This document shows, piece after piece, positions 6,988 to 58,922 of a stretch of DNA of 64,000 nucleotides (position 1 is its first letter; every line of letters begins with the position of its first letter). The notes below the pieces were generated by a model. It saw only the letters and a list, made by a program, of their open reading frames with translations, was not told the DNA's origin and made no database searches. Both the position numbers and the translations under genes were made by a program. Source of the stretch: Patescibacteria group bacterium (GTDB lineage: Bacteria > Patescibacteriota > Minisyncoccia > Phycocordibacterales > PALSA-1337); contig JAGXAG010000001.1 of NCBI GenBank assembly GCA_018971685.1, forward strand, positions 90,396 to 154,395. Reading direction: 5' to 3'.

Positions 6988-7045
6988 AGTATATCATGCA
7001 CCGGTCCGACCGGTGTACACCGGTCGGACCGGTGCATGATATACT
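6988..7045. repeat. Perfect 58-bp palindrome in the divergent HIT/recJ promoter region
   Basis: agtatatcatgcaccggtccgaccggtgta | caccggtcggaccggtgcatgatatact; the right half is the exact reverse complement of the left; TATACT-like ends lie 7-8 nt from each start codon. Confidence 0.9.
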
Positions 7046-7052
7046 CAAACAC

Positions 7053-8801
7053 ATGAAATATTCGATCAGGCGGCAACTTTCGAATGAAGAATTGACTAAA
7101 TTGGCGACATTTCCGCCTCTGGTGGCACATTTGTTATTTCACAGGGGAATATCAGACGGGAACGCCGCGGAAAAATTCATGGTGCCGGATTACGAACGCG
7201 ATACCCATGATCCGTTATTGCTCCAAGATGCCGGTAAGGCCGCCGCGCGTATCATTCAAGCAATAAAGAATGATGAAAAGACGGTGATATATGCAGACTA
7301 TGATGCCGATGGCATACCCGGCGCCGTTATTTTCGACCAACTGTTCAAGAAAATCGGCTTTAAAAATTATTTCGTCTATATTCCGCATCGCCACGACGAA
7401 GGATTCGGCTTGAACGAAGACGCTGTTCTCGAATTTGCGGAGCAGGGAGTGAAGCTCGCGATCACGATCGACTGCGGCATTACCGACAAAACCGCGCTCG
7501 AGCTCGCCTTCGGCAAAGGTATAGATATCATCGTTACCGATCATCACGAGCAGCCAGAAGCCGGATTGCCGCCGGCCTATGCCGTTGTCGATCCCAAAAG
7601 GAACGATTGTGCGTATCCGGACAAGAACATCTGCGGCGCCGGCGTCGCTTACAAACTCATTCAGGCCGTACTCGGCGTCGACAGTTTCGGCATAAAGAAA
7701 GGGTGGGAAAAGTGGCTGCTAGACATGGTCGGCGTCGCTACGCTCTCGGACATGGTGCCTTTGACCGGTGAAAATCGCGTTTTTTCCCATTATGGCCTGC
7801 AAGTCTTGCGCAAATCGCCGCGCAAAGGCCTGAATGAATTGCTCGGCAAGCTCAGGATCTCGAAAAAACATTTGACCGAAGATGATATCGGCTTTATGAT
7901 CACGCCGCGCATCAATGCCGCCTCGCGCATGGGCGTGCCCATGGACGCATTCAATCTTTTGTCGGCCGAAAATGACATCCTGGCGGCCAAATATGCCGAA
8001 CGCCTGGACGCCGTCAACAACGAGCGGAAAGCGGCGGTTGCGGTACTGGTCAAAGAAGTCAAACGGACGATCAGGGAACGGTATGGTGAGAATATCACCG
8101 CCGTGATCGTGCTCGGCAATCCCGTTTGGCGCCCGTCGCTCCTGGGACTTGCCGCCAACACCTGCGCCGCCGAATTCAACCGACCGGTTTTCCTCTGGGG
8201 CCGCGACGGCGGCAATATTATCAAAGGGTCATGCCGCTCCGAAGGCCGCACCAATGTCGTAGAATTAATGCGCGCCGTACCGGGCGGAGTCTTTTCCCAA
8301 TTTGGCGGGCACAAACATTCGGGCGGCTTCGCGGTATCGAACGATCAAGTATATTTTTTGGAAAAACATTTGAACGAAGCCGACGAAAAAACCAAAAACC
8401 AAAAACCAAAAATAAAGAATTCGGAACAAGAAAGCGGCCTTGGCGAAGAGGATTTCATCGACGCGGAGCTGGCTTTGGGAGCCGTTGATTGGGAATTGTA
8501 CGAAGATATTTCCAAATTGGCGCCGTTCGGGAAGGATAATCCGAAGCCGGTATTTTTATTTAGGAATGTAATGCCGGCCGAGGTCAGACGGTTTGGCAAG
8601 GGCAAAGAGCATATAGGCGTGGATTTTAAGCGCCTCAACGGTTCGCGCTTGTCGGCGATTTCATTCTTCGGCGCCGAAAATGAATGGGCCGGCGAAATAA
8701 AAACAGGAAAACCGATTGACATGATCGCTTCACTGGAAAAATCGATATTTAGGGGAAAAATCGAGCTCAGATTGAGAATATTTGATATTATTTCGTTATG
8801 A
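7053..8801 (+). CDS. recJ: Single-stranded-DNA-specific exonuclease RecJ
   Basis: DHH motifs DYDADGIPG, ITIDCGITD, IVTDHH; DHHA1 region; start taken at MKYSIRR (the ORF's upstream ATG lies inside the palindrome). Confidence 0.9.
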   Translation: MKYSIRRQLSNEELTKLATFPPLVAHLLFHRGISDGNAAEKFMVPDYERDTHDPLLLQDAGKAAARIIQAIKNDEKTVIYADYDADGIPGAVIFDQLFKKIGFKNYFVYIPHRHDEGFGLNEDAVLEFAEQGVKLAITIDCGITDKTALELAFGKGIDIIVTDHHEQPEAGLPPAYAVVDPKRNDCAYPDKNICGAGVAYKLIQAVLGVDSFGIKKGWEKWLLDMVGVATLSDMVPLTGENRVFSHYGLQVLRKSPRKGLNELLGKLRISKKHLTEDDIGFMITPRINAASRMGVPMDAFNLLSAENDILAAKYAERLDAVNNERKAAVAVLVKEVKRTIRERYGENITAVIVLGNPVWRPSLLGLAANTCAAEFNRPVFLWGRDGGNIIKGSCRSEGRTNVVELMRAVPGGVFSQFGGHKHSGGFAVSNDQVYFLEKHLNEADEKTKNQKPKIKNSEQESGLGEEDFIDAELALGAVDWELYEDISKLAPFGKDNPKPVFLFRNVMPAEVRRFGKGKEHIGVDFKRLNGSRLSAISFFGAENEWAGEIKTGKPIDMIASLEKSIFRGKIELRLRIFDIISL

Positions 8802-9286
8802 TTAAAATCTTTACGGATGGCTCGTCTCGAGGCAATCCCGGACCGGGAGGGTGGGGAGCAATAGTGCAGATCGAAAGTGAGAAGTCAAAAATGAAAAATG
8901 GCGGTGCGGCGACGAGAGAGCTGGGAGGGAGGGAAAATTCGACGACGAATAACAGAATGGAGTTAAAAGCGGCAATTGAAGCGCTAAGGTATGTTAAAAC
9001 ATTAAATATCGGCAGCGATGAAACGGTGGAAATCAATTCTGACTCGGAATATGTGGTTAAAGGCATGACGCAATGGATCTATGGTTGGAAAAGGAAAGGA
9101 TGGACAGGCAGCGCCAAGAAGCCGGTGATGAACAGGGACTTGTGGGAAGATCTCGATTTGGCCGCTTCAGGACTGAATGTTAGGTGGAATCATGTGGCCG
9201 GCCATTCCGGACATGCGGAAAATGAAAGATGCGATAAAATCGCCACCGATTTTGCCGACGGCAAGGAAATCGAACTGCAAGAATGA
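8798..9286 (+). CDS. rnhA: Ribonuclease HI
   Basis: MIKIFTDGSSRGNPGPGGWGAIV and C-terminal HSGHAENERCD motifs. Confidence 0.9.
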   Translation: MIKIFTDGSSRGNPGPGGWGAIVQIESEKSKMKNGGAATRELGGRENSTTNNRMELKAAIEALRYVKTLNIGSDETVEINSDSEYVVKGMTQWIYGWKRKGWTGSAKKPVMNRDLWEDLDLAASGLNVRWNHVAGHSGHAENERCDKIATDFADGKEIELQE

Positions 9287-9477
9287 TTTCCCCGTAACAA
9301 TATGTTCCGTTCCAACAAGTTCCAAATTGAATCGGGGATTTGGAGGTCGCCGTTTTTCATTTCGCGTAACTCCTTGAAAAGGAACACATTGTTGCGGGGA
9401 AATCATGCGTTTATCGGACAATTCGATGTTATCAAAATGTTATCAGTTCGTAATCGGACCGTAATCTCACTCTGATA

Positions 9478-12943: not shown

Positions 12944-13197
12944 GAAAGTTTATAAACAGTATGCTAGCATAAAGAAAGTGTTTTGGAAAGCACGACATTG
13001 TTTTTTGCGAATCTGCGGAACTCGCTTCCTAAATTTCTAGGCAAAAGCTCGCGGGATTGCTCGGCGCTCCGCATACGCTTTGCGCCGTAGCAATTCCGGC
13101 GAGAGCTCGCTTTTGCCAAGAAATTTATGGTCGCTCAGACAGGTCCTCGATTCGCAAAAAACGATGTCGTGCTTTCCAAAACGCTTTCTTTAACGCC

Positions 13198-24107: not shown

Positions 24108-25295
24108 ATGGCAGCAGAATTCAATCGTTCGAAGCCCCATGTCAATGTCGGCACAATCGGCCACATTGACCACGGCAAGTCCACTTTGACCGCCGCCATC
24201 TTGGCGGTGCAGGCCAAGAAGGGCATGGCCAAAGAAAAGGCCTATGCCGATATTACCAAAGGCGGCACTGTCCGTGATGCCACCAAGACCGTCACGATCT
24301 CGCTTTCGCATGTCGAATACGAAACGCCCAACCGCCACTATGCGCACATCGACGCGCCCGGACACGCTGACTACATCAAAAACATGATCACCGGCGCCGC
24401 CCAAATGGACGGAGCCATACTGGTCGTGTCCGCGACCGACGGCGTCATGCCTCAGACGCGCGAGCACATACTGCTCGCCCGCCAAGTAGGCGTGCCGAAA
24501 GTGCTTGTTTTCCTCAACAAATGCGATATGGTCCCGGAGAAGGACCTTATCGATCTGGTCGAAGAAGAAGTTCGCGAGCTCTTGACGAAATATCAATTCG
24601 ACGGCAAAAACGCACCGGTTATCCGCGGTTCGGCCCTGAAAGCCCTCGAAGGCGACGCGGCTTGGACGGTGAAGATCGACGAGCTTATGAACGCCCTCGA
24701 CACTTTCATCCCGGAACCTGTCCGCGAAGTCGATAAGCCGTTCCTGATGCCGATCGAAGACATTTTCTCGATCGAAGGGCGCGGCACGGTCGTAACCGGC
24801 CGTATCGAGCGCGGCAAAGTCACAGTCGGCGATGAAATTGAGATTGTCGGATTCAAAGACACCAGCAAGACGACCGTTACCGGCATTGAAATGTTCAACA
24901 AGTCGCTTAAAGAAGGCATTGCGGGCGATAATGCCGGCGTACTCCTGCGCGGCACCGCCAAAGACGATGTCTCGCGCGGCCAAGTTTTGGCCAAGCCGGG
25001 ATCCGTCAAGCCGCACACCGAATTTGAAGCGGAAGTTTATATCCTGAAAAAGGAAGAGGGCGGCCGTCATACGCCGTTCTTCACCGGCTATAAGCCGCAA
25101 TTCTATATCCGCACCACCGATGTTACCGGCGAAGTAACTCTGCCTGAGAAGGTTGAAATGGTCATGCCGGGCGACACGGTCTCATTCAAGGTCAAACTGG
25201 TCGCGCCGGTCGCCTTGGAAAATCAGATGCGTTTTGCCATCCGCGAAGGAGGCAAGACCGTGGGCTCGGGTGTCGTCACCAAGGTTGTCGCGTAA
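24108..25295 (+). CDS. tuf: Elongation factor Tu
   Basis: [49 protein letters not shown]; 395 aa. Confidence 0.97.
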
Positions 25296-25393
25296 ATTTT
25301 CATCCAAAAGGCTTCCGTCGTTCACGCGCTCGATGCTACTCGTCGGGCGGTGTAACGGCGGGAGTTTTTGGAATCGAAAAACCATATTTAACC

Positions 25394-31031: not shown

Positions 31032-31040
31032 AGTAATCGC

Positions 31041-31079
31041 GGTAAAACCACCACGAGGTCCGACCTCGTGGTGGTTTTT
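31041..31079 (+). terminator. Rho-independent terminator
   Basis: aaaaccaccacgaggtc-cga-gacctcgtggtggttttta, a 13-bp perfect stem plus T-tract. Confidence 0.65.
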
Positions 31080-31216
31080 ATGTTGACAAATAAGGTGTTT
31101 GCACATTTTGTACCCAAAGGTGCGAAAAAACGGTAAAAAACGCACCTTAAGGTACGAAATATGCTAATTTTAAGAAAAAATTTATAGAATAATTGAATTG
31201 ATGCTATAATCAACGC

Positions 31217-37623: not shown

Positions 37624-38457
37624 TTGACGGCAGGTTCGACCACACTATCATCGCTGTCAGTCACAGGTTCGACATCTTTGGCGTCGCTTGCAGTCAGCGG
37701 CGTTACGGCATTGTCAGGTCCTCTTACGGTCTCTCTCGGTAGCCTGTCCGGGTCTGATACTTATTATGATATGAGTAAAATAGCAAATTACAATCAAATG
37801 TCCATAAGCTCCGGACAGATACAACTGTCTCTGGCGTGGACTTGTGGAAGTCACACTCTGGTAGGCCCAGACGGTTTGACCTATGGTACTGTCGTCGGGG
37901 CTGACGGCAACTGCTGGCTGGACAGGAACCTAGGCGCTACGGAAGTAGCCACAGCCTACAACGATGCCAATGCATATGGTTACTACTATCAATGGGGACG
38001 CGGTATGGATGGCCACCAGATATCTACCAGTTTGACCACAAATACTCTATCCTCCACTGACCAGCCGGGCAACAGCAATTTCATATTGGCGCCAAGCTCT
38101 CCTTATGACTGGCGTAGTCCGCAGAATAACAATCTATGGCAAGGAGCGTCGGGAGTAAACAATCCTTGTCCGAATGGATTCCGCTTGCCGACTAACCAGG
38201 AATGGTCGAACCTGGTATCGGCGGCGGGAATTACCGATTACTCAACAGCTTTCAGTTCCTCATTGAAACTAACACTAGCCGGCGACCGCGACTACTCCTC
38301 CGGTAGTCTCAGCCCTCAGGGAGGTTTCGGTCTCTACTGGTCGAGCTCAGTCTCCGGTGCGAATGCTTTCTCCCTGTACTTCAGCTCTTCCGGGGTTAGC
38401 CCTTCGTACTCGTACTACCGGGCCTACGGCTTCTCGGTTCGTTGTATAAAGAATTGA
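37624..38457 (+). CDS. DGR variable (target) protein with a C-type-lectin/FGE-like fold and C-terminal VR
   Basis: TTG start in frame with the upstream ORF; C-terminal ...YWSSSVSGANAFSLYFSSSGVSPSYSYYRAYGFSVRCIKN is a variable-repeat copy of the TR. Confidence 0.75.
   Translation: MTAGSTTLSSLSVTGSTSLASLAVSGVTALSGPLTVSLGSLSGSDTYYDMSKIANYNQMSISSGQIQLSLAWTCGSHTLVGPDGLTYGTVVGADGNCWLDRNLGATEVATAYNDANAYGYYYQWGRGMDGHQISTSLTTNTLSSTDQPGNSNFILAPSSPYDWRSPQNNNLWQGASGVNNPCPNGFRLPTNQEWSNLVSAAGITDYSTAFSSSLKLTLAGDRDYSSGSLSPQGGFGLYWSSSVSGANAFSLYFSSSGVSPSYSYYRAYGFSVRCIKN
38277..38451 (+). repeat. DGR variable repeat (VR)
   Basis: About 170 nt homologous to the TR; 19 mismatches, every one at a TR adenine; 3' ends identical (ggcttctcggttcgttgtataaag). 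Confidence 0.85.
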
Positions 38458-38486
38458 CAATTTATCAATTTGACAATTAAAAAATT

Positions 38487-39209
38487 ATGGCGCTCTACTA
38501 CACATTGCCGATATACAAATCTAGTTACAAACTTGCTTTCTTGTTGTTCGATGCCTCTACCCATTTTGCCAGAGAGTATAAATATACTGTTGGTCAGCAA
38601 TTGAAAGACGAAGCGATGAAATTGGTTAAAAATGTGTATAGAGCCAATAAAGCTATTGATAAAAATTGTGCCATAAATGAGGCGAGAGAAAATGCGGAAA
38701 TGATACGGCTGATGGTCCGTCTGATGAAGGATTTCAATCAGCTTAGCCTGAAAAAATTCCTGGAAATCAATCTGTGCATAGAAGATGTGTCCAAGCAACT
38801 CACTTCTTGGGGAAAGAGCTTTAGGACAAAATTATCAATACCGCCTGAATCGTCTGTAGCCAGAGCCCAGACGAGCGTGCGGAGCAAATTCAATGGCCCC
38901 CTTGCCTCATCAGGCAAGGAATATCGTCCGGATCACGGATGTGTTTCGCCGTCCCGTACTCATGGGGAAGGTGCGACAAATACAGAGGCCATAATCACAG
39001 TAGCCGGCTACCGCGACAACTCCTCCGGTAGTCTCAACAATCAGGGAGGTAACGGTAACTACTGGTCGAGCTCAGTCTCCGGTACGAATGCTTTCAACCT
39101 GAACTTCAACTCTTCCGGGGTTAACCCTTCGAACACGAACAACCGGGCCAACGGCTTCTCGGTTCGTTGTATAAAGCATTTGCAAATAGCGTATGAAAAA
39201 GTCAATTAA
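38487..39209 (+). CDS. avd: Avd-like accessory variability determinant (first ~115 aa) in an ORF that reads through the TR
   Basis: Helical, basic N-terminal part (about 115 aa) at the position of Avd; the rest of the ORF is TR sequence in an open frame. Confidence 0.5.
   Translation: MALYYTLPIYKSSYKLAFLLFDASTHFAREYKYTVGQQLKDEAMKLVKNVYRANKAIDKNCAINEARENAEMIRLMVRLMKDFNQLSLKKFLEINLCIEDVSKQLTSWGKSFRTKLSIPPESSVARAQTSVRSKFNGPLASSGKEYRPDHGCVSPSRTHGEGATNTEAIITVAGYRDNSSGSLNNQGGNGNYWSSSVSGTNAFNLNFNSSGVNPSNTNNRANGFSVRCIKHLQIAYEKVN
39002..39176 (+). repeat. DGR template repeat (TR)
   Basis: Adenine-rich (AAC codons: NNQGGNGNYW...NLNFN...NTNNRAN) counterpart of the VR, immediately upstream of the RT. 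Confidence 0.85.
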
Positions 39210-40377
39210 CGACAACCCGCAACTACTTTTGAACTTGTTCAAGGCATATTATGATGCCCGTAGGCACAAGGGTTTGTCTGCCAATGTTCTGGCTTTTTCG
39301 GCTGATTATGAGAGCAAATTATTCAAACTCTATGAAGATATTCTAGATCGAAGATATGTCATAGGGCCAAGCGTATGCTTCATCGTCAATCGGCCGGTAA
39401 AGCGAGAAATATTCGCCGCCGACTTTCGCGACAGGGTTGTTCATCATCTAATATTCAATTATCTCAATCCTATAGTTGAGAGAGATTTTATAAAGGATAG
39501 TTATAGTTGCAGATTGGGGAAAGGCACTTCTTATGGCGTGCGCAGAGTTAATCATTTTCTGCATTCTTGCTCAGAGAACTATACTCACGAGTGTTGGATC
39601 ATGAAACTGGATATACGAGGTTACTTTATGTCTATGAATAAAGATATTCTATACGGCAAGGTAAAAGAAGTCGTCGATAAGGCGAGAAATATATCTTTTG
39701 ACAAGGAACTCCTCATGTATCTGGTGAATAAAGTTGTATACCACGATCCTGTCACTAATTGTCGTATAAAAGGCGACAGATCAGACTGGGTGGGATTGCC
39801 AAAATCAAAAAGTTTGTTTTTCGCCGAAAAGAACCGAGGATTTCCTATAGGGAATCTCACTAGTCAACTATTCGGGAATATATACATGAATAGGTTCGAC
39901 CATATAATAAAGGAAGATCACAATTTTAAGCATTATGGCCGATATGTTGATGATATGATCTTCGTGCATAAAGACAAGGGGACATTGGCGTCCACGATCC
40001 CGATCGTAAAAAAGTATCTTTTTGAAGAACTTGGGTTGGAATTACATACCAAAAAGATATATTTACAGCCGTCTGCTGTCGGTGTTAGCTTTTTGGGGGC
40101 TTACATAAAGCGATGGTGCCAATATGTCGGAAAAAAGACCAAGACTAATTGTTATACTAGAATCAGTAGGTGGAATTCAGAAGTTAATAAAAACAGCTAC
40201 GACAAGTTTTTATCTTCGATGAATTCATATCTTGGATTTATGAGCCAATACGATACTTATAGGCTTCGCCAGAAAGTCATGTCAAAATTAAGCCGCCAGA
40301 TTGTATCGAAACTGATCATTTCCAAAGATTTTTCTTCGATAAAAATAAATTCTGCAGCGAATACATTACGAACATGA
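39193..40377 (+). CDS. DGR reverse transcriptase
   Basis: RT domain with the IGNLTSQ motif characteristic of DGR RTs and YVDDMIF (YxDD) in the catalytic box; adjacent TR/VR. Confidence 0.9.
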   Translation: MKKSINDNPQLLLNLFKAYYDARRHKGLSANVLAFSADYESKLFKLYEDILDRRYVIGPSVCFIVNRPVKREIFAADFRDRVVHHLIFNYLNPIVERDFIKDSYSCRLGKGTSYGVRRVNHFLHSCSENYTHECWIMKLDIRGYFMSMNKDILYGKVKEVVDKARNISFDKELLMYLVNKVVYHDPVTNCRIKGDRSDWVGLPKSKSLFFAEKNRGFPIGNLTSQLFGNIYMNRFDHIIKEDHNFKHYGRYVDDMIFVHKDKGTLASTIPIVKKYLFEELGLELHTKKIYLQPSAVGVSFLGAYIKRWCQYVGKKTKTNCYTRISRWNSEVNKNSYDKFLSSMNSYLGFMSQYDTYRLRQKVMSKLSRQIVSKLIISKDFSSIKINSAANTLRT

Positions 40378-47209: not shown

Positions 47210-49198
47210 ATGACGCAAAAGGAGGCATTGGAAATATTGAAGACCGGCGCGAATGTTTTCTTGACAGGCGCGGCCGGAAGCGGCAAGACGCACATCCTGC
47301 GGGAATATTTGGCGTGTTTGAAAGAGCGTAAAATCCCGGTCGGAGTGACGGCTTCGACCGGCATTGCCGCCACGCATATGGGCGGAGTCACCATACATTC
47401 ATGGTCCGGAATAGGAGTCAAAGACCAATTGAGTGATTGGGACATAGACGAAATATCGCAGCGGGAAAAATTATCGGCCAGAATAAACGCCGCCAAAGTA
47501 CTGGTGATCGACGAAATCTCGATGCTGCACCACTATCAGCTGGACATGGTGAACCGCGTGCTCAAGTCTGTGCGCAATTCGCCGGAGCCGTTCGGCGGAT
47601 TGCAGGCGGTCGTCTGCGGGGACTTCTTCCAACTGCCGCCGGTCTCGCGCCGGCCGAGATCGTTCGACGCGGACGGGATGCTCTTTATCGACGACGATTA
47701 TGATGCGGACGGCAAAGCCAGGTTCGCGTACCATTCGCGGGCGTGGCGGGAGGCGGAGTTTGCGGTGTGCTATTTGGAGGAAAATTACAGGCAAAGCGAC
47801 GAACAATATTTGCAGGTGTTGAACGCGATCAGGAATTCCGCGGTCACCGATGAAATCGTTGAAATCTTGAAGAGTCGATTCAAGGCGGCAATTCCGCCGT
47901 CTGCTCTGCCAAATAAAGCGGTTGCCGAAGCGTCCCGCGGCACAAGTTTTTTGAGTTCCGCGACTCCGCCGCGAAGCAATCCGTCGCCGCGTTTCCCAAC
48001 CGACAAGTCCGTGTATGTCCGAGAGGGCTTGTCGGTTGCGGAAACGCCGACGGTTGCGAGCGGCATTCGCGGAACTCAAAAAACTTGTGCCGCGGGACGC
48101 GAATCTGTTACCAGATTGTATTCTCATAACGCCAATGTCGACGCGGAGAACGAGCGGGAGCTGGCGAAATTGAAAACGCCTTTGCAAAAATACGAAATGA
48201 CCGGGCGCGGCAAGAGACATTTGGTCGAAGCGCTCAAGAAGAGCTGTCTGGCGCCGGAAGTGTTGAAATTGAAAGATGGCGCCAAAGTGATGTTCGTGAA
48301 GAATAATTTCGAAAAAGGATTCGTGAACGGCACTACCGGGATCGTGAAGAAATGCACGCCGTTCGAAATCGTGGTGGCGACCGATAAAGGGCATGTGCGG
48401 GTCGAAACGGAGTCGTGGCACATCGAAGACAACGGCAAAATCCTGGCGGAAATCGAGCAGTACCCTCTGCGGCTGGCTTGGGCGATAACGATACACAAAA
48501 GCCAAGGCATGTCGCTGGATGCGGCGGAAATCGATCTGTCTCAGTCGTTCGAAAAAGGCATGGGCTATGTGGCGCTTTCCAGGGTGAAAACTTTGGATGG
48601 TCTATCGCTTTCCGGCCTGAATAAAACCGCGCTTGAGATACACGGAGAGGCGTTGGAGTACGACAAATCATTCAGGGAACAATCGGACAGAGCGGCGGCG
48701 GAATTGGCGGTTATGCCGGAAGAGGAATTGAAGAGAAGGCAAACAGGATTCTTGGGGCCGGAGCCGGCGCGCACAAATATGACCAGAAAATCCCACGCCT
48801 CGCGAAGCGAGGTACCCCCTTTTTCAAAGGGGGATTTCGCGCGGCGAGACCAGGAAACTGGTTCTGCGAATGGGTCCAGAGAACCGAAAATACCGACGAC
48901 GGAACGAACAAGGCGATTATTGGATGCCGGAATGACGGTGGGAGAAGCGGCGGCGGCCAGGGGGTTGAAGGCGGAGACTATCATCAACCATATCGGACTG
49001 ATCAAGCGCGCGGATGATTCTTGGGACATTTCGAGGTTCAGATCAATCATACCGGCCGACAGACTGGAGAAGATCATTGAAGCGTTCAACGGATCGAAAC
49101 CGGGCGCGGACGGCTTGCCGCCGCTCACTCCGGTAAAACAAAGATTGGGCGCGGGGTATTCGTATGAGGAGATAAAAATCGCGAGGCTGTTCCTGTGA
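47210..49198 (+). CDS. Pif1/RecD-family ATP-dependent DNA helicase
   Basis: Walker A FLTGAAGSGKTHIL, VLVIDEISML, GDFFQLPPV, TIHKSQGMSLD motifs; C-terminal HTH-like region. Confidence 0.8.
   Translation: MTQKEALEILKTGANVFLTGAAGSGKTHILREYLACLKERKIPVGVTASTGIAATHMGGVTIHSWSGIGVKDQLSDWDIDEISQREKLSARINAAKVLVIDEISMLHHYQLDMVNRVLKSVRNSPEPFGGLQAVVCGDFFQLPPVSRRPRSFDADGMLFIDDDYDADGKARFAYHSRAWREAEFAVCYLEENYRQSDEQYLQVLNAIRNSAVTDEIVEILKSRFKAAIPPSALPNKAVAEASRGTSFLSSATPPRSNPSPRFPTDKSVYVREGLSVAETPTVASGIRGTQKTCAAGRESVTRLYSHNANVDAENERELAKLKTPLQKYEMTGRGKRHLVEALKKSCLAPEVLKLKDGAKVMFVKNNFEKGFVNGTTGIVKKCTPFEIVVATDKGHVRVETESWHIEDNGKILAEIEQYPLRLAWAITIHKSQGMSLDAAEIDLSQSFEKGMGYVALSRVKTLDGLSLSGLNKTALEIHGEALEYDKSFREQSDRAAAELAVMPEEELKRRQTGFLGPEPARTNMTRKSHASRSEVPPFSKGDFARRDQETGSANGSREPKIPTTERTRRLLDAGMTVGEAAAARGLKAETIINHIGLIKRADDSWDISRFRSIIPADRLEKIIEAFNGSKPGADGLPPLTPVKQRLGAGYSYEEIKIARLFL
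47931..48099. repeat. Nested palindromic element inserted in-frame in the helicase CDS
   Basis: 32-nt perfect inverted arms (cgtcccgcggcacaagttttttgagttccgcg ... cgcggaactcaaaaaacttgtgccgcgggacg) flank about 105 nt that themselves hold imperfect inverted repeats. Confidence 0.85.
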
Positions 49199-49246
49199 GA
49201 GCAACTTTTTTATCAAAGGCGAAGTAATATATGTATTATAAAGGTA

Positions 49247-49843
49247 ATGACAAAAACAAACATGGCAAACAAAAATAAAGAAATATTGAAGATCGCAATA
49301 ATTATAGGTAGCACCAGGCCGGGCAGATTTGGCGACAAGCCGGCCAAGTGGATATACGAAGAGGCGAAAAGAACGGACGGGGTAGAGGCGGAATTGCTGG
49401 ATTTGCGGGATTATCCGATGCCTTTTTACGCCGAAGACCATTCGTTCAGCATGAATCCGGCGGTTTCCGACCAAACGGCGGAGAAATGGCAGGCGAAAAT
49501 CGGCGCGGCGGACGCTTTTGTCATCGTCACGCCGGAATACAACCACGGCCCCTCGGCAGTCTTGAAGAACGCGCTCGACTATGCGTACCGCGAATGGAAC
49601 GACAAGCCGGTTGCTTTCGTCGCTTATGGCAGTGTGGGCGGCGCCCGCGCGGTGGAACAATTGCGGCTGGTCGCGATCGAACTGCAAATGGCGCCGATCC
49701 GAAACGCGGTGCACATTCCGGCGCCGTGGTTCTTGGTTGACGGCAAAGGCGATCTGAAGCCGAATGCCCTGGATCCATTCAAGGACGCGGCAAAAAATAT
49801 GCTGGAACAACTGGTAAGATGGGGGAGGGTGATGAAAAGATAG
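49247..49843 (+). CDS. NAD(P)H-dependent FMN reductase (flavodoxin-like, SsuE/YieF family)
   Basis: IAIIIGSTRPGRF... and VIVTPEYNHGPSAVLKNALDY motifs. Confidence 0.8.
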   Translation: MTKTNMANKNKEILKIAIIIGSTRPGRFGDKPAKWIYEEAKRTDGVEAELLDLRDYPMPFYAEDHSFSMNPAVSDQTAEKWQAKIGAADAFVIVTPEYNHGPSAVLKNALDYAYREWNDKPVAFVAYGSVGGARAVEQLRLVAIELQMAPIRNAVHIPAPWFLVDGKGDLKPNALDPFKDAAKNMLEQLVRWGRVMKR

Positions 49844-50214
49844 ATTCAGAGCTAGATAAAGGGTGGGTACAAATTGTACATACCCTTAGCATAAACACTG
49901 CAGGAGGGACGCTGAAAGTGCTTTGTGCCAATACCGAGGGCATATTCCGCATCATTCAATCTATTCCATCGCCCAAGGCTGAGCCGTTCAAACGCTGGCT
50001 GGCGAGGGTTGGCTACGAGCGCATTCAGGAGATTGAAGACCCGGAGCTGGCCACCAAGCGCACCCGCGCCCTTTATAAAGCCAAGGGCTATGATGATGCC
50101 TGGATCGAGAAGCGCATGCGCGGTATTGCCGTTCGCGAAAAATTGACCGATGAGTGGCAGAAACGGGGGATTAGACTCTCAGGATTCGCGACCTATTGTC
50201 GTAAATTCAGTTGA
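49819..50214 (+). pseudogene. Remnant of a Bro-N/DinD-like (phage antirepressor-type) protein lacking its N-terminus
   Basis: SPKAEPFKRWLA resembles the Bro-N KPEAKxFKRWV motif; the first ~60 aa of the domain are missing; overlaps the end of the FMN reductase gene. Confidence 0.35.
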
Positions 50215-50277
50215 GTCCGCAATCCACAAGGAATTGCGGTGTGCAGATTTTATTTTCGGTATCTACACAGTTGACCG

Positions 50278-50508
50278 TTAGGTTTTGATAAAACCCTGAA
50301 AATCTTCGGCTGGAACGGCGCCCCATCCTCTGGGAACATTGTCGACGATGCTCACAGCGATAATGGAACTCTTTCCCAGCTTTCCAATTTCCGTTCGGAC
50401 CTTCTCAACAAAAGCGTCGGCTTCTTCGGTACCCTTGAGAGGACCGTAAAAGCTTCGACTCGTGCTAGAAGTTCCGACACCAGTTAGGATAAGTGCGTAC
50501 TTTTCCAT
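50278..50508 (-). CDS. Hypothetical 76-aa protein, second gene of an unknown two-gene operon
   Basis: ATG 1 nt after the upstream gene's TAA; no recognisable domain. Confidence 0.35.
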   Translation of the reverse strand: MEKYALILTGVGTSSTSRSFYGPLKGTEEADAFVEKVRTEIGKLGKSSIIAVSIVDNVPRGWGAVPAEDFQGFIKT

Positions 50509-50509
50509 G

Positions 50510-51676
50510 TTAACAAACTTCGCTAAGCGCTCCCTTGGGTAACGACCCCTGTGGCAACCTGTCCTTGCGAACTATGCACGGTCTTACCTGCACGATTTTC
50601 GGTGCGGACGGATTGTCTCCTGTGCCAGGCGCTCGCCGCCAGTGACCTCGACGGAAGTGTGCCGATATTTCGACCAGTGTTGAACGCGCACTTGAAGAAA
50701 TCACTCTGAGAGCTTCTTTCTCATCAGTTGATAACTTGTGACAGAAATCAACCGAGCAAACGAGCGCTTCCTTTGTGATAACAGTCGCGTCTTTGGTCGG
50801 ATTCGGCACTCTCTGCCAATCACTTGCATGGCTTGACTCCGAGGGCAGGGTTTTGAGATATAGGCATAAGCCCACGACAAGACGCTTAATCATTTCGAAC
50901 TCAGCGTGCTCATCGAAGTTTTCGATGCGTGTCTCGTTTGTGACCTTGTCGAAATACTCGATACCATCACTCTGCTCCTCCGTAACTTTCCCGAATGTGT
51001 ACGGGATGTACGAAACGGCGGCGAATGTATCGGCTTTCTGGTCACTTGCCTTGGCGAGTAGTTCACTCGCAGTACCCCAACGGCGTTTACTGATCGCTTC
51101 CCGAATCCGCTGACGCACATACGGGGAGATTGCAGGAATTTCGCAGTAGCCTGGCGCAAATGCACGAATGCACATGGTATCTTCCTTGCACGCAATCCCC
51201 GTCTCTCGCGAGAATAGGATGCAGTCAAGTTGATGTCCACGAGAATCGCGGATCGGCGTCTCCAGGGTGATAGCGAATGAATCGAATGGCCAAGGCACCT
51301 CATCCCAACAAATGTCAGAAAGAGAAGTGGCCATCAGAATGTGGGCGAGATCGGACGACAGATGGAACACTCGCCGGGAATACTTGGTCCAAGCAGTCAG
51401 ACTGCAGGGTAAGAATTCCAGAAAGTGACCGGCTGTCGCCACGGCCTTGCGGACCTCGTCAACTCCGACATACTTGCTGTAGTCAAACTCTTCCGAGTGG
51501 CATTTGAGCAAGTACTTGCGGAAATTGAAGGCGTTAACCAGAGGACCTTGTTCGGGTAGAACAAGGTCGGGATGTTGACCGCTTGCCCTGCTTAGGATTG
51601 ACTCCGTTTGCAGGTGAAAGCAGTAGTTTTCCCAACGGCGCAGAGCGCCTTCGAGGTGCAGAATGTTCGTTTTCAT
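50510..51676 (-). CDS. Hypothetical 388-aa protein (unknown function; possible defence/accessory gene)
   Basis: Long ORF with no recognised motifs; Cys-rich central region; sits between RhuM/Bro-N-like remnants. Confidence 0.4.
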   Translation of the reverse strand: MKTNILHLEGALRRWENYCFHLQTESILSRASGQHPDLVLPEQGPLVNAFNFRKYLLKCHSEEFDYSKYVGVDEVRKAVATAGHFLEFLPCSLTAWTKYSRRVFHLSSDLAHILMATSLSDICWDEVPWPFDSFAITLETPIRDSRGHQLDCILFSRETGIACKEDTMCIRAFAPGYCEIPAISPYVRQRIREAISKRRWGTASELLAKASDQKADTFAAVSYIPYTFGKVTEEQSDGIEYFDKVTNETRIENFDEHAEFEMIKRLVVGLCLYLKTLPSESSHASDWQRVPNPTKDATVITKEALVCSVDFCHKLSTDEKEALRVISSSARSTLVEISAHFRRGHWRRAPGTGDNPSAPKIVQVRPCIVRKDRLPQGSLPKGALSEVC

Positions 51677-51980
51677 GCTGTTTCAATGTTCTGTTCAGTG
51701 ACTTCCGAAAATTTACCTCTTGTAAGTATAGCATACTACGACATAAAAATCAAGAGCTGTCTAACAAGCTGCGGAATTATACAAGGAATTATAGAGATGG
51801 GAAAATAAATCCGGAAAATGACTGAAGCAGAACATTTTCGGCGGGTTTGGTGTAGAATATTCGCATGAATGACGAAAATGGCGAAAAAATTGATGAAAGT
51901 ATTCAGAGCGCGCCTGATAAGATGAAAAATAAATAAACTATGAAAAAGAAGCATATACAAAAGAATGTGGTGATATTCTA

Positions 51981-52154
51981 ATGGACAGAGAATTGGATGC
52001 CAATTCAGTATGTGCAAATTTTGCACATACTGCCGAGGACGGAAAAACATACCAAGTCAGATTTTATAATCTCGATGTTATCTTGTCTGTCGGGTACAGA
52101 ACCAATTCAGTACGGGCAGTAGAATTTAGGAAATGGACAATGTCCGATTACTGA
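51981..52154 (+). pseudogene. Fragment of a RhuM-family (Virulence_RhuM) gene
   Basis: DGKTYQVRFYNLDVILSVGYRTNSVRAVEFRKW matches the RhuM core (YNLDaIIsVGYRV.S..g.qFR.WAT); an upstream in-frame TAA and a premature stop after 57 aa. Confidence 0.5.
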
Positions 52155-52347
52155 AGTCCGACCTCAGTAATCCAAAAGAAAAACGATTAACTAACCGCTA
52201 TTGACGAAAACCCCCAAGGTTTGCTAGTATCAAAATACCTCAAAAAGGCAGTTTGCGAGGAAATGATTGGAAGCAGGCCGCGCGGCGGGAACGAAAAGCC
52301 GGCGGGGAGCTAACCAATCAAATTTTAATTGAGGAAATAAACAATTC

Positions 52348-52533
52348 ATGGCAACAAGCGCGATGATAGCCAGATCGGCCAAGAAGCCGAAATTCAAATC
52401 CAGAGTCGTCCGGCGCTGTTTTCGTTGCGGCCGCAAGCGCGCATATATGAGGGATTTCGACATGTGCAGGATCTGCTTCAGGGAATTCGCCAATGAAGGC
52501 ATGATTCCCGGCATCAAAAAATCGTCATGGTAA
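52348..52533 (+). CDS. rpsN: 30S ribosomal protein S14 type Z (zinc-binding)
   Basis: 61 aa; CxxC...CxxC (CFRCGRKRAY...CRICFRE). Confidence 0.9.
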   Translation: MATSAMIARSAKKPKFKSRVVRRCFRCGRKRAYMRDFDMCRICFREFANEGMIPGIKKSSW

Positions 52534-52913
52534 CAGACCCAGTATCGGATTTGATCATAAGAATCAAGAACGGCAGCGATGCCGGACTTGGTGTTGTGGC
52601 CGTGACCAAATCAAAATTGATTGAAAATATCGCGCACGCGCTCAAAAAGGCCGGCTTCGTTTCTTCGGTTGAAAAAGGCAAGAATGACCGAGAATTGGCG
52701 CTCGGCATCATCTACTTCGATGGTGCGCCGCGGATACACGGAGTCGAACGGATCTCGAAGCCGTCGCGCAGAATATACCAAAAATCGCGCGACATCAGGG
52801 GATACAAGAGCGGATTCGGCAATGTGATATTGTCCACGCCAAAGGGAATATTTACGGATGTCGAGGCGCGGAAGATGAAAGTTGGAGGAGAGGTGTTGTT
52901 TCGAATTTGGTGA
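52527..52913 (+). CDS. rpsH: 30S ribosomal protein S8
   Basis: MVTDPVSDLIIRIKNG. Confidence 0.9.
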   Translation: MVTDPVSDLIIRIKNGSDAGLGVVAVTKSKLIENIAHALKKAGFVSSVEKGKNDRELALGIIYFDGAPRIHGVERISKPSRRIYQKSRDIRGYKSGFGNVILSTPKGIFTDVEARKMKVGGEVLFRIW

Positions 52914-57024: not shown

Positions 57025-57792
57025 ATGATAACCATCAAAACAAAAGAAGAAATTTCGATCCTGCGCGAAGGAGGCAGGCGGCACGCTGATATATTGAGAA
57101 AATTGGCGGCTATGGTAAAGCCCGGCATAAGCGCCGCGGAATTGAACGACGAGGCGGAAAGATTGATCGCGGAAGGCGGCGACAAGGCGGCGTTCATGAA
57201 TTATCGGCCGAAAGGAGCGAAACGGCCGTATCCGGCCGCTCTGTGCGTGTCGGTGAACGATGAGGTGGTTCACGGCATACCGAACGAATGCGATAAAATC
57301 TTGAAGGAGGGCGACATCGTGAGCATTGACTTGGGTTTGACGCACGAAGGACTGATAACCGATGCGGCGGTGACTGTGCCGGTCGGGCAAATATCGCCGG
57401 CATTGGAACAGCTTTTGCGCGTGACCAAAGAGGCGCTTATGGCCGGCATCAAGGCGGCCAAAGGCGGCAAGAAAACCGGCGATATCGGCGCGGTGGTCGA
57501 ACGGACGGCGGTGCCTTACGGATACGGCATCGTGGAAATATTGGCGGGACACGGGGTCGGCTATGAAGTGCATGAAATGCCGTATGTGCCGAATTTCGGC
57601 GAGCGCGGTTCCGGCGATGTTTTAAAGCCGGGAATGGTAATCGCGATCGAACCGATGTTCAATCTGGGCGGCAAGCGCGTGGTTTTGTCGGACGATGATT
57701 ATACTTACAAGACGGCCGACGGCAGTCCGAGCGCGCATTTCGAACATACGGTGCTTATTACGAAAGGGAATGCGGAGATTTTGACAATGTGA
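57025..57792 (+). CDS. map: Methionine aminopeptidase type I
   Basis: MITIKTKEEISILREGGR...; pita-bread fold metal ligands D..D..H..E..E. Confidence 0.9.
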   Translation: MITIKTKEEISILREGGRRHADILRKLAAMVKPGISAAELNDEAERLIAEGGDKAAFMNYRPKGAKRPYPAALCVSVNDEVVHGIPNECDKILKEGDIVSIDLGLTHEGLITDAAVTVPVGQISPALEQLLRVTKEALMAGIKAAKGGKKTGDIGAVVERTAVPYGYGIVEILAGHGVGYEVHEMPYVPNFGERGSGDVLKPGMVIAIEPMFNLGGKRVVLSDDDYTYKTADGSPSAHFEHTVLITKGNAEILTM

Positions 57793-57793
57793 C

Positions 57794-57941
57794 CGCACCC
57801 GAAGCAAGCGCCGCATTTCCAAGCCGTCAAGACTCGCTCCGTTACAAAGTCCGAGCGAAGATGATATATGAGCGAAGCGATTATACTGCGCTCAAACAGG
57901 TTGCCGGCTTGGAAATACGGCGCTTGCTTCGGGTGCGGCCG
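57794..57941. repeat. Long inverted-repeat (hairpin) element between map and ndk
   Basis: 34-nt arms ccgcacccgaagcaagcgccgcatttccaagccg / cggcttggaaatacggcgcttgcttcgggtgcgg (one mismatch) flank about 80 nt. Confidence 0.85.
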
Positions 57942-58689: not shown

Positions 58690-58892
58690 CATTCAAGGAG
58701 TACTAAAATTAAATCAGGTTGCGGGAGTATAAACCCTATACCAACATATTCGGGAGGCCAATGAATGATTCGCGAGGATCGTTCTGATTCGTAGGCGCTT
58801 AGGCGCTCTATGTGAGGCAACCCACCTGTAGTAAACAGGTTATGGTACTCTCGCAATCGACAAAAAATACCCAGCGGGTATTTTTTGTTTGT
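58690..58892 (+). ncRNA. Candidate structured leader/ncRNA ending in a rho-independent terminator just upstream of a membrane-protein gene
   Basis: About 330 nt without a credible ORF; terminator aaaaaataccc-agc-gggtattttttgtttg at 58862-58895, only 28 nt before the ATG at 58923. Confidence 0.3.
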
Positions 58893-58922
58893 AGGTTTCC
58901 GTGATATCATATTAAACAAGCC

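Follow-up and report, generated by a model that had tools for sequence, protein, structure and literature searches.

A nested palindrome in frame within a Pif1-type helicase gene of a Patescibacteria group bacterium, a likely case of a tolerated foldback insertion

How a gene comes to hold a long DNA palindrome within its coding sequence and still be read from end to end is the question raised by an element of 171 nt in the gene of a Pif1-type helicase, which lies in a stretch of 64,000 nucleotides (here called the window) of contig JAGXAG010000001.1 of a Patescibacteria group bacterium (assembly GCA_018971685.1). The answer that we favor, with moderate confidence, is that a non-autonomous foldback element similar to MITEs (miniature transposable elements with inverted repeats) or Rickettsia palindromic elements (RPEs) was inserted in frame into a disordered linker of the helicase and has been tolerated there. 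Judged by its sequence, the host gene belongs to the Pif1 family, as had been proposed in the initial annotation of this DNA: Pfam recognized PIF1 (4.7e-35), AAA_30, Pif1_2B and a C-terminal HTH_40 domain, solved Pif1 structures in the PDB matched with a best E-value of 6.5e-63, and an alignment with 18 homologues revealed more than 100 invariant columns common with the helicase, in which all helicase motifs are kept. The gene is located within a ribosomal-protein operon, with rplE on one side and rpsN on the other, and since relatives hold it at the same operon position, the helicase gene itself is an old resident of this locus. Three NCBI accessions from metagenome-assembled genomes of Patescibacteria have the identical helicase protein, and a fourth assembly encodes a single-residue variant. 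The element is present, in the same orientation, in all four strains, which are near-clonal; strain GCA_028870795 differs from the window by 2 nucleotides over 22 kb, and of the strain single-nucleotide polymorphisms (SNPs) one, 48004 C>A (D265E), falls inside the element and the other at 39867.

The anatomy of the element (Table 1) is that of a palindrome within a palindrome. The initial annotation had described perfect inverted arms of 32 nt; the repeat search confirmed their perfect complementarity and gave them a length of 34 nt. Between the arms lie 103 nt, close to the roughly 105 nt claimed, and this interior is itself palindromic as claimed, its arms of 47 and 42 nt being interrupted by several small bulges and indels and closed by a 14-nt apical loop (48011-48024). 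The whole element is predicted to fold as a single hairpin of 71 pairs, 34 of them in the perfect outer stem and 37 in the interior, with a minimum free energy of -136.6 kcal/mol as RNA (z = -14.0) and of -88.3 kcal/mol as DNA (z = -14.8), so that the strong RNA fold looked for after the initial annotation is indeed predicted. In dinucleotide shuffles of the window, zero matches to the arm within 3 mismatches were obtained (expectation 0.00). Pairing is complete in the termini (34/34) and about 77% in the interior, a difference with P ~1e-4 under a uniform rate, and perfect termini with a loose interior are the pattern that terminal inverted repeats enclosing an unconstrained interior would be expected to show. 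The perfect inverted repeat ends sharply at 47930 and 48100, GAA adjoins it on both sides, and the arms do not repeat gene sequence from the flanks.

Table 1. Positions in the window of the helicase element, its parts, its host gene and the other hairpins and foldbacks.
Feature	Position	Strand	Description
Whole element, 171 nt (57 codons)	47930-48100	+	Nested palindrome, codons 241-297
Left flanking direct repeat GAA (codon E240)	47927-47929	+	Candidate target-site duplication or microhomology junction
Left terminal arm, 34 nt	47930-47963	+	GCGTCCCGCGGCACAAGTTTTTTGAGTTCCGCGA; 100% complementary to right arm
Interior, 103 nt	47964-48066	+	Imperfect nested palindrome (folds; inverted-repeat search)
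Right terminal arm, 34 nt	48067-48100	+	Exact reverse complement of left arm
Right flanking direct repeat GAA (codon E298)	48101-48103	+	Sequence
Host gene, Pif1-like superfamily 1B (SF1B) helicase, 662 aa	47210-49198	+	Open reading frame (ORF); Pfam; PDB matches
Two small adjacent hairpins (second cluster)	48798-48833	+	Sequence; fold
Perfect palindrome, 58 nt, no spacer	6988-7045	n/a	z = -10.6; overlaps first ATG of RecJ-like ORF 6996-8801
Nested foldback, 124 nt	9283-9406	n/a	39-nt arms, 85% complementary, z = -5.9
Nested foldback, 223 nt	12970-13192	n/a	44-nt arms, 95% complementary, z = -15.3
Nested foldback, 146 nt	57793-57938	n/a	38-nt arms, 95% complementary, z = -11.0

Because the length of 171 nt is divisible by three and the host frame is free of stop codons throughout the element, the gene stays open and the element would be read through. 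The in-frame unit of about 170 nt and 57 residues that had been proposed thus corresponds to 57 codons, starting at codon 241. The encoded peptide, ASRGTSFLSSATPPRSNPSPRFPTDKSVYVREGLSVAETPTVASGIRGTQKTCAAGR, is rich in Ser, Thr, Pro, Ala, Arg and Gly, and GTSFLSSATPPR is among the peptides that read-through would yield. Four of the six frames of the element are open, including +0 and -0, and the opposite strand encodes in the matching frame the same arm peptides (ASRGTSFLSSA…RGTQKTCAAGR), as had been pointed out in the initial annotation. The element holds no other meaningful ORF and no transposase gene, no promoter or terminator consensus was detected at it, and covariance models of Rfam 15 yielded zero matches at the gathering score over the whole window. 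Its GC content is 62% as compared to 54% in the rest of the gene, and at codon position 2 the GC fraction is 0.70 as compared to 0.42, which indicates that the element has not been shaped as coding sequence in the host frame. The chance of a stop-free frame was estimated at about 0.13-0.17 and that of a length divisible by three is about 1/3; taken together with a permissive loop, these chances make a surviving in-frame insertion a plausible filtered outcome.

The alignment with the 18 homologues places the 57 residues in the linker between '…LKSRF' and 'TRLYSHN', which starts behind the helix of the Pif1 signature motif, in the domain-1A part, and leads to the first strand of domain 2A, and the homologues are without them. 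This is what had been anticipated, a lineage-specific insert of about 57 residues as opposed to a protein segment conserved among homologous helicases: the linkers of the homologues are unrelated in sequence and not palindromic, vary in length within the family (11-104 residues) and cannot be aligned between clades, and solved Pif1 structures have about 19 residues at this site. An AlphaFold2 model built from the alignment was confident for the helicase core and rendered residues 227-297 as coil with a predicted local distance difference test score (pLDDT) of about 30, flanked by helix 214-221 and strand 301-304. In silico excision of 174 nt, i.e., of the element together with one GAA, leaves the linker RFKAAIPPSALPNKAVAESVTRLYSHN, which is close to RFLGIASVAPRSVDSEAAVEPTKLYSHN of homologue P0006, and the empty-site junction to be expected would read …GCCGAA followed by TCTGTTACC…. 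Excision raised the alignment with P0006 from 541 to 614 bits and reduced its gaps from 64 to 6, raised that with P0021 from 512 to 572 bits, joined the two fragments obtained with each of P0002 and P0022 into one alignment, and improved the alignment to every short-linker member of the clade. Relatives that are 53-68% identical do not possess the element. The long-linker homologues P0004, P0005, P0008 and P0009 have zero inverted repeats in the linker, and no hairpin of at least 60 nt was present in the helicase gene among 80 relatives from GTDB and other loci (about 85 relatives, about 560 kb). Moreover, among the 14 long foldbacks found in about 657 kb of DNA of the candidate phyla radiation (CPR), the helicase element is the only one within a real gene. 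That the long linkers of the relatives are decayed copies of the element was rejected, as they show neither inverted repeats nor similarity to it. In the closest relative (68% identity), the contig ends within the helicase linker beside a small imperfect hairpin (L033:1-69).

Taken together, the sharp ends, the improved fit after excision, the hairpin-free relatives, the composition, and the contrast between termini and interior favor the arrival of a pre-formed foldback element. We propose that a small foldback element, neither coding nor autonomous, whose 34-bp terminal inverted repeats are perfect and whose interior is imperfectly palindromic, would have entered the helicase gene at a short surface linker leading from the domain-1A part to domain 2A, and that the trinucleotide GAA would have been duplicated, or used, on insertion. 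As its 171 nt are a multiple of three and happened to be free of stop codons in the host frame, the gene would have stayed open, and the element would be translated as 57 extra residues that lie, as a disordered loop, beyond the folded core. Helicase function is expected to be kept, and the insert would persist as tolerated, essentially selfish DNA. What the sequences show is the structure of the element, its position in frame, its lack in homologues, a host site that is disordered and hypervariable, and a composition unlike that of the gene; arrival by transposition-like insertion, translation and neutrality are inferred.

Several observations weigh against this proposal, above all the failure to find the element a second time. 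The initial annotation had suggested looking for additional copies, and none appeared in the sequences and collections covered: not in the window, not in about 30 kb more of the same genome past the window ends (about 94 kb in total), and not in 640 kb of relatives. Exact-word DNA scans with 21- to 25-mers gave 0 matches among the GTDB representative genomes (25-mer) and 0 in IMG/VR, scans that did not return the source genome itself either, and 1 match in JGI metagenomes (21-mer), where the source genome was likewise not recovered. The latter match (L008) was rejected as a copy of the element, for it is a lone arm-like 21-mer without an inverted partner in an unrelated oxidoreductase-like ORF, and about one match was expected by chance. 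BLAST against phage and plasmid records returned zero matches to the element, and an exhaustive phmmer search of the 57-residue peptide against 1.84 billion representative proteins, a library of 50%-identity representatives only, returned only two spurious matches to tandem-repeat proteins. Two word-indexed searches, with the 57-residue peptide and with the concatenated six-frame translation, were uninformative: they missed their positive control, the helicase P0001, which contains the query and which local phmmer finds with the 57-residue segment at E = 2e-25. The word index therefore appears blind to this segment, and its negatives on low-complexity inserts are not to be trusted. A related autonomous element or a parent insertion sequence with the same termini was absent from the sequences searched as well. 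A multi-copy RPE-like family is thus unproven rather than refuted, because most of the source genome was not searchable. Furthermore, translation of the insert is suggested by the open frame only; the flanking 3-bp GAA match has a chance of about 1/64, is weak when taken alone and would be just as likely after a template switch mediated by microhomology; because the linker changes so rapidly, the lack of homology to the linkers of relatives has little power; and since all four near-clonal strains carry the element and no other relative exceeds 68% identity, there is no true empty-site allele.

Some of these observations lend weight to an origin of the palindrome in place, which we regard as less likely but credible. 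An extra linker stretch of about 85 nt would have been copied in inverted orientation by a replication template switch, of the fold-back or strand-switch kind, at the GAA microhomology, with no mobile element involved, and the arms would later have been partly homogenised by quasi-palindrome correction or arm-to-arm conversion, or else the centre would have diverged because central asymmetry stabilises long palindromes. The GAA microhomology fits such a junction, perfect inverted repeats are known to arise by template switching and arm conversion (as discussed for the coding palindromes of Nematomorpha; PMC6649704), and the element is unique wherever it was searched for. At least four other long foldbacks of unrelated and unique sequence occur in the window (at 6988, 9283, 12970 and 57793), so the source genome may generate or tolerate palindromes in general, and the linker is hypervariable, reaching 77-104 residues in relatives without the element. 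Despite this, a single duplication followed by drift predicts even divergence, whereas the outer 34 bp are perfect and the interior is imperfect and carries indels. Moreover, the best fit to the relatives results from excising the whole element and not half of it, and the GC content and codon-position profile are unlike those of the gene in both halves. Neither half is detectably related to the linker DNA of relatives, all scores being at the shuffle mean, although this comparison has low power.

That the structure is instead functional and under selection, acting in cis on helicase expression, seems to us improbable, and no better chance can be given to the forms that this could take, namely an RNase III target, a translation pause at the domain boundary, a cruciform or protein-binding site, or an invertible segment. 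The extreme stability of the fold, the perfection of the termini despite an imperfect interior, the location of both hairpin clusters exactly in the two disordered inter-domain linkers and the openness of frames +0 and -0 would suit such a role; however, two open frames are not rare at the composition of the element, hairpins are missing at both positions in every relative in spite of the conserved gene and operon context, and Rfam gave no match. In addition, the sole polymorphism among strains, 48004 C>A, costs the interior stem one pair with no compensatory change and shifts ΔG from -135 to -129 kcal/mol, and the common orientation in all four assemblies does not speak for inversion. An artefact of assembly or amplification, by which a chimeric fold-back read or an assembler error made the palindrome, is hardly credible. 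It is true that the contig of strain GCA_028865955 ends within the 58-nt palindrome (at about 7035 of the window), which thus breaks short-read assembly, and that the contig of the closest relative ends within the helicase linker. Nevertheless, the identical 171 nt are present in several assemblies and differ in the fourth by one SNP inside the element, and fold-back artefacts copy adjacent sequence perfectly, whereas here the arms are not copies of the flanks, the interior is an imperfect palindrome containing indels, and the gene stays in frame. Very improbable, finally, is the production of helicase isoforms from one gene by ribosome bypass from E240 to E298 or by inversion, between the 34-bp repeats, of the interior, which is open in both orientations. 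Translational bypass is known from gene 60 of phage T4 and from the mitochondrial 'byp' elements of Magnusiomyces, with gaps of 27-55 nt. The helicase element is similar in being a hairpin insert bracketed by identical in-frame GAA codons (47927, 48101) as possible take-off and landing sites, but it has no stop codon after the take-off site, the gap would be 171 nt, and there is no evidence of bypass. If true, the protein would be made with linkers with and without, or with alternative, 57 residues, bypass would create the junction peptide …AVAESVTR…, and the device would be the first of its kind in a CPR bacterium and far longer than known bypass gaps.

Among known systems, the favored foldback insertion is close to the RPEs, with which the initial annotation had compared it. 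RPEs, intragenic repetitive extragenic palindromic sequences (REPs) and QMITEs insert in frame (PMC10969869, PMC5896051, PMC3733652), and the helicase element shares with RPEs the palindromic nature, a size of about 100-170 bp, the long hairpin, the in-frame position at a permissive site of an intact housekeeping gene with a surface or permissive peptide as the outcome, and CGTC in the termini, as it begins with G-CGTC and RPEs end in CGTC (PMC3733652). RPEs and MITEs are, however, defined as repeated families (PMC10969869, PMC5896051), RPEs with 44 copies and ten families encoding conserved peptides in R. conorii (Ogata et al. 2000/2002 and Claverie & Ogata 2003, summarised in PMC10969869 and PMC6649704), whereas the helicase element is known as one copy, its host is a Patescibacterium, its arms are longer and perfect (34 bp), and phmmer showed no relationship of its peptide to RPE families among the 1.84 billion proteins. 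The likeness therefore holds for anatomy and consequence, is unproven as to a repeated family, and does not extend to similarity to a known peptide or RNA family.

With MITEs such as QMITE1/QMITE2, ERIC, Correia and MITEAba12 the element has in common terminal inverted repeats, small size, lack of a transposase, a short direct repeat, a strong predicted hairpin and the occasional overlap or fusion with ORFs. QMITE1 of Coxiella has direct repeats of 2-3 nt (PMC5896051), MITEAba12 occurs in 1-22 copies per genome and in some MITE families the number goes down to one (PMC10969869), and about 90% of MITEs are intergenic (PMC11602168). Here, by contrast, neither a multi-copy family nor a parent insertion sequence with the same termini was found in the sequences searched, and the element is located in the middle of a gene, whereas QMITE effects on functional genes concern 3' ends. 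REPINs, mobilised like REPs by Y1 transposases, form long hairpins whose ends are conserved and whose middle is looser (PMC3733652, PMC3116915), and intragenic REPs have been reported preferentially in replication and repair genes (PMC3733652). The helicase element resembles them in its loose middle and in residing in a gene of DNA metabolism, and the source genome encodes a Y1 protein resembling REP-associated tyrosine transposases (RAYTs) with REPs of its own, its gene being located about 44 kb from the element and about 3 kb beyond the left edge of the window. Unlike REPINs, the element is not known to be repeated, and only the CGTC tetranucleotide matches. A link to the REP/RAYT system of the genome was rejected, since its motif CACCGGTC-N-GACCGGTG is absent from 47930-48100, and so was a CGTC-type REP unit: CGTC is present at nt 2-5, but CCGCGGCACAAG… forms no stem of 8-9 bp with a loop of 4-5 nt and pairs only with the distant arm. 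In Nematomorpha, long perfect inverted repeats likewise occur in translated coding sequence and raise the same question of whether template switching or conversion actively maintains arm identity (PMC6649704); the arms there encode conserved protein and palindromes are many per genome, whereas the arms here encode a non-conserved disordered loop.

The second cluster of hairpins that had been noticed in the C-terminal region of the helicase is real but modest. It comprises cctcgcgaagcgagg at 48798-48812 and ccccctttttcaaaggggg at 48815-48833, with stems of 6 bp and 8 bp, respectively, each closed by a 3-nt loop, and for the surrounding 121 nt the fold has z = -3.9. It lies within a second disordered linker of variable length, which connects the helicase core with the HTH domain (residues 523-560, pLDDT <50), and this linker differs in length from that of the closest relative. 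The second cluster is not demonstrably related to the 171-nt element. The helicase has a further, clade-specific insert of residues 143-173 (47636-47728 of the window; …RRPRSFDADGMLFIDDDYDADGK…) directly after the 'DFFQLPP' motif, which is common to P0007, P0009 and related proteins, is predicted to be disordered and is not palindromic. A test of palindromic coding potential from the peptide only, intended for P0007, proved powerless, as it missed the window's own palindrome, and was dropped. In homologue P0005 a perfect hairpin with 19-nt arms at the 3' end of the helicase gene (L003:3442-3481) is read through and adds a C-terminal tail, …WAHPPQEIRSPRRSNLL, that is lacking in other homologues; this tail is another case of hairpin DNA turned into coding sequence.

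The remaining long foldbacks of the window show no sequence similarity to the helicase element or to one another. The three nested ones are all intergenic, two of them begin at, or extend over, the stop codon of the gene upstream, and all three share the architecture of the helicase element, their outer arms being well matched and their interior less so. An unrelated intergenic foldback of 110 nt with perfect 34-nt arms (L033:2759-2868) is located at the locus of the closest relative. The gene for the Y1 protein (HUH type, 'NHFH') mentioned above lies on the same contig at L089:6068-6661 (-), within a repeat span of L089:5938-6840; it scored 27.4 bits with Pfam Y1_Tnp, above threshold, and its best NCBIfam match, 'REP-associated tyrosine transposase', remained below the cut-off. 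The 17-nt palindromic motif flanks this gene on both sides, with 10 matches in 22 kb as compared to 0.08 expected, and in the form CCGGTCNGACCGG the REP motif has 10 matches around the Y1 gene and 2 at 7001-7032, where two inverted units of it make up the 58-nt palindrome. From these sequence features, a REP/RAYT-like system appears to be present in this Patescibacterium.

A fold scan of the whole window for decayed intragenic foldbacks detected only a bulged fold of about 100 nt (z = -5.5) that lies in the gene of methionine aminopeptidase (57326-57475) and does not represent an insert. After tuf (25295-25375) and near 31.05 kb (31040-31080) there are long terminator-like hairpins, the latter with a GGTCCGACC core reminiscent of the REP motif, and a multi-stem structure with a terminator follows ndk (58751-58900); none of these four folds had an Rfam match. 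A canonical diversity-generating retroelement (DGR) occupies 37624-40377 and consists of the 3' end of the target gene with the variable region (VR), bAvd, the template repeat (TR) and a reverse transcriptase gene, in which the strain SNP at 39867 falls. Its VR (38272-38460) and TR (38997-39185) are 189 nt long and 87% identical, and 19 of their 24 mismatches are at template adenines. A link of the helicase element to this DGR, about 8 kb upstream, was rejected, as the DGR has its own VR/TR pair. At the host locus, the gap between rplE and rpsN (47210-52900) also holds, besides the helicase gene, which is found there in relatives too, in this genome an FMN-reductase-like gene as well as Bro-N, AcrVA2-like and RhuM-family genes, which have the appearance of a small mobile or anti-defence island. 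Past the right end of the window (L092:486-2057) a serine recombinase is encoded.

What is new here is most probably an in-frame foldback insertion of a known type in an unusual host lineage. In-frame palindromic insertions tolerated by the protein are known mostly from Rickettsia and a small number of other bacteria, and the helicase gene offers a clear example from the Patescibacteria (CPR), whose genomes are tiny and gene-dense and leave little non-coding room for selfish DNA. In practice, palindromes of this kind disrupt assembly from short reads, and both gene calling and domain annotation can be misled by them. If the genome has more copies, the element would define a new family of coding-compatible foldbacks in CPR bacteria; should it be truly unique, it would be a natural case of the de novo birth of a palindrome within a gene. 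The hypervariable inter-domain linkers of essential-type enzymes can serve as safe landing sites for such DNA and as raw material for new protein segments.

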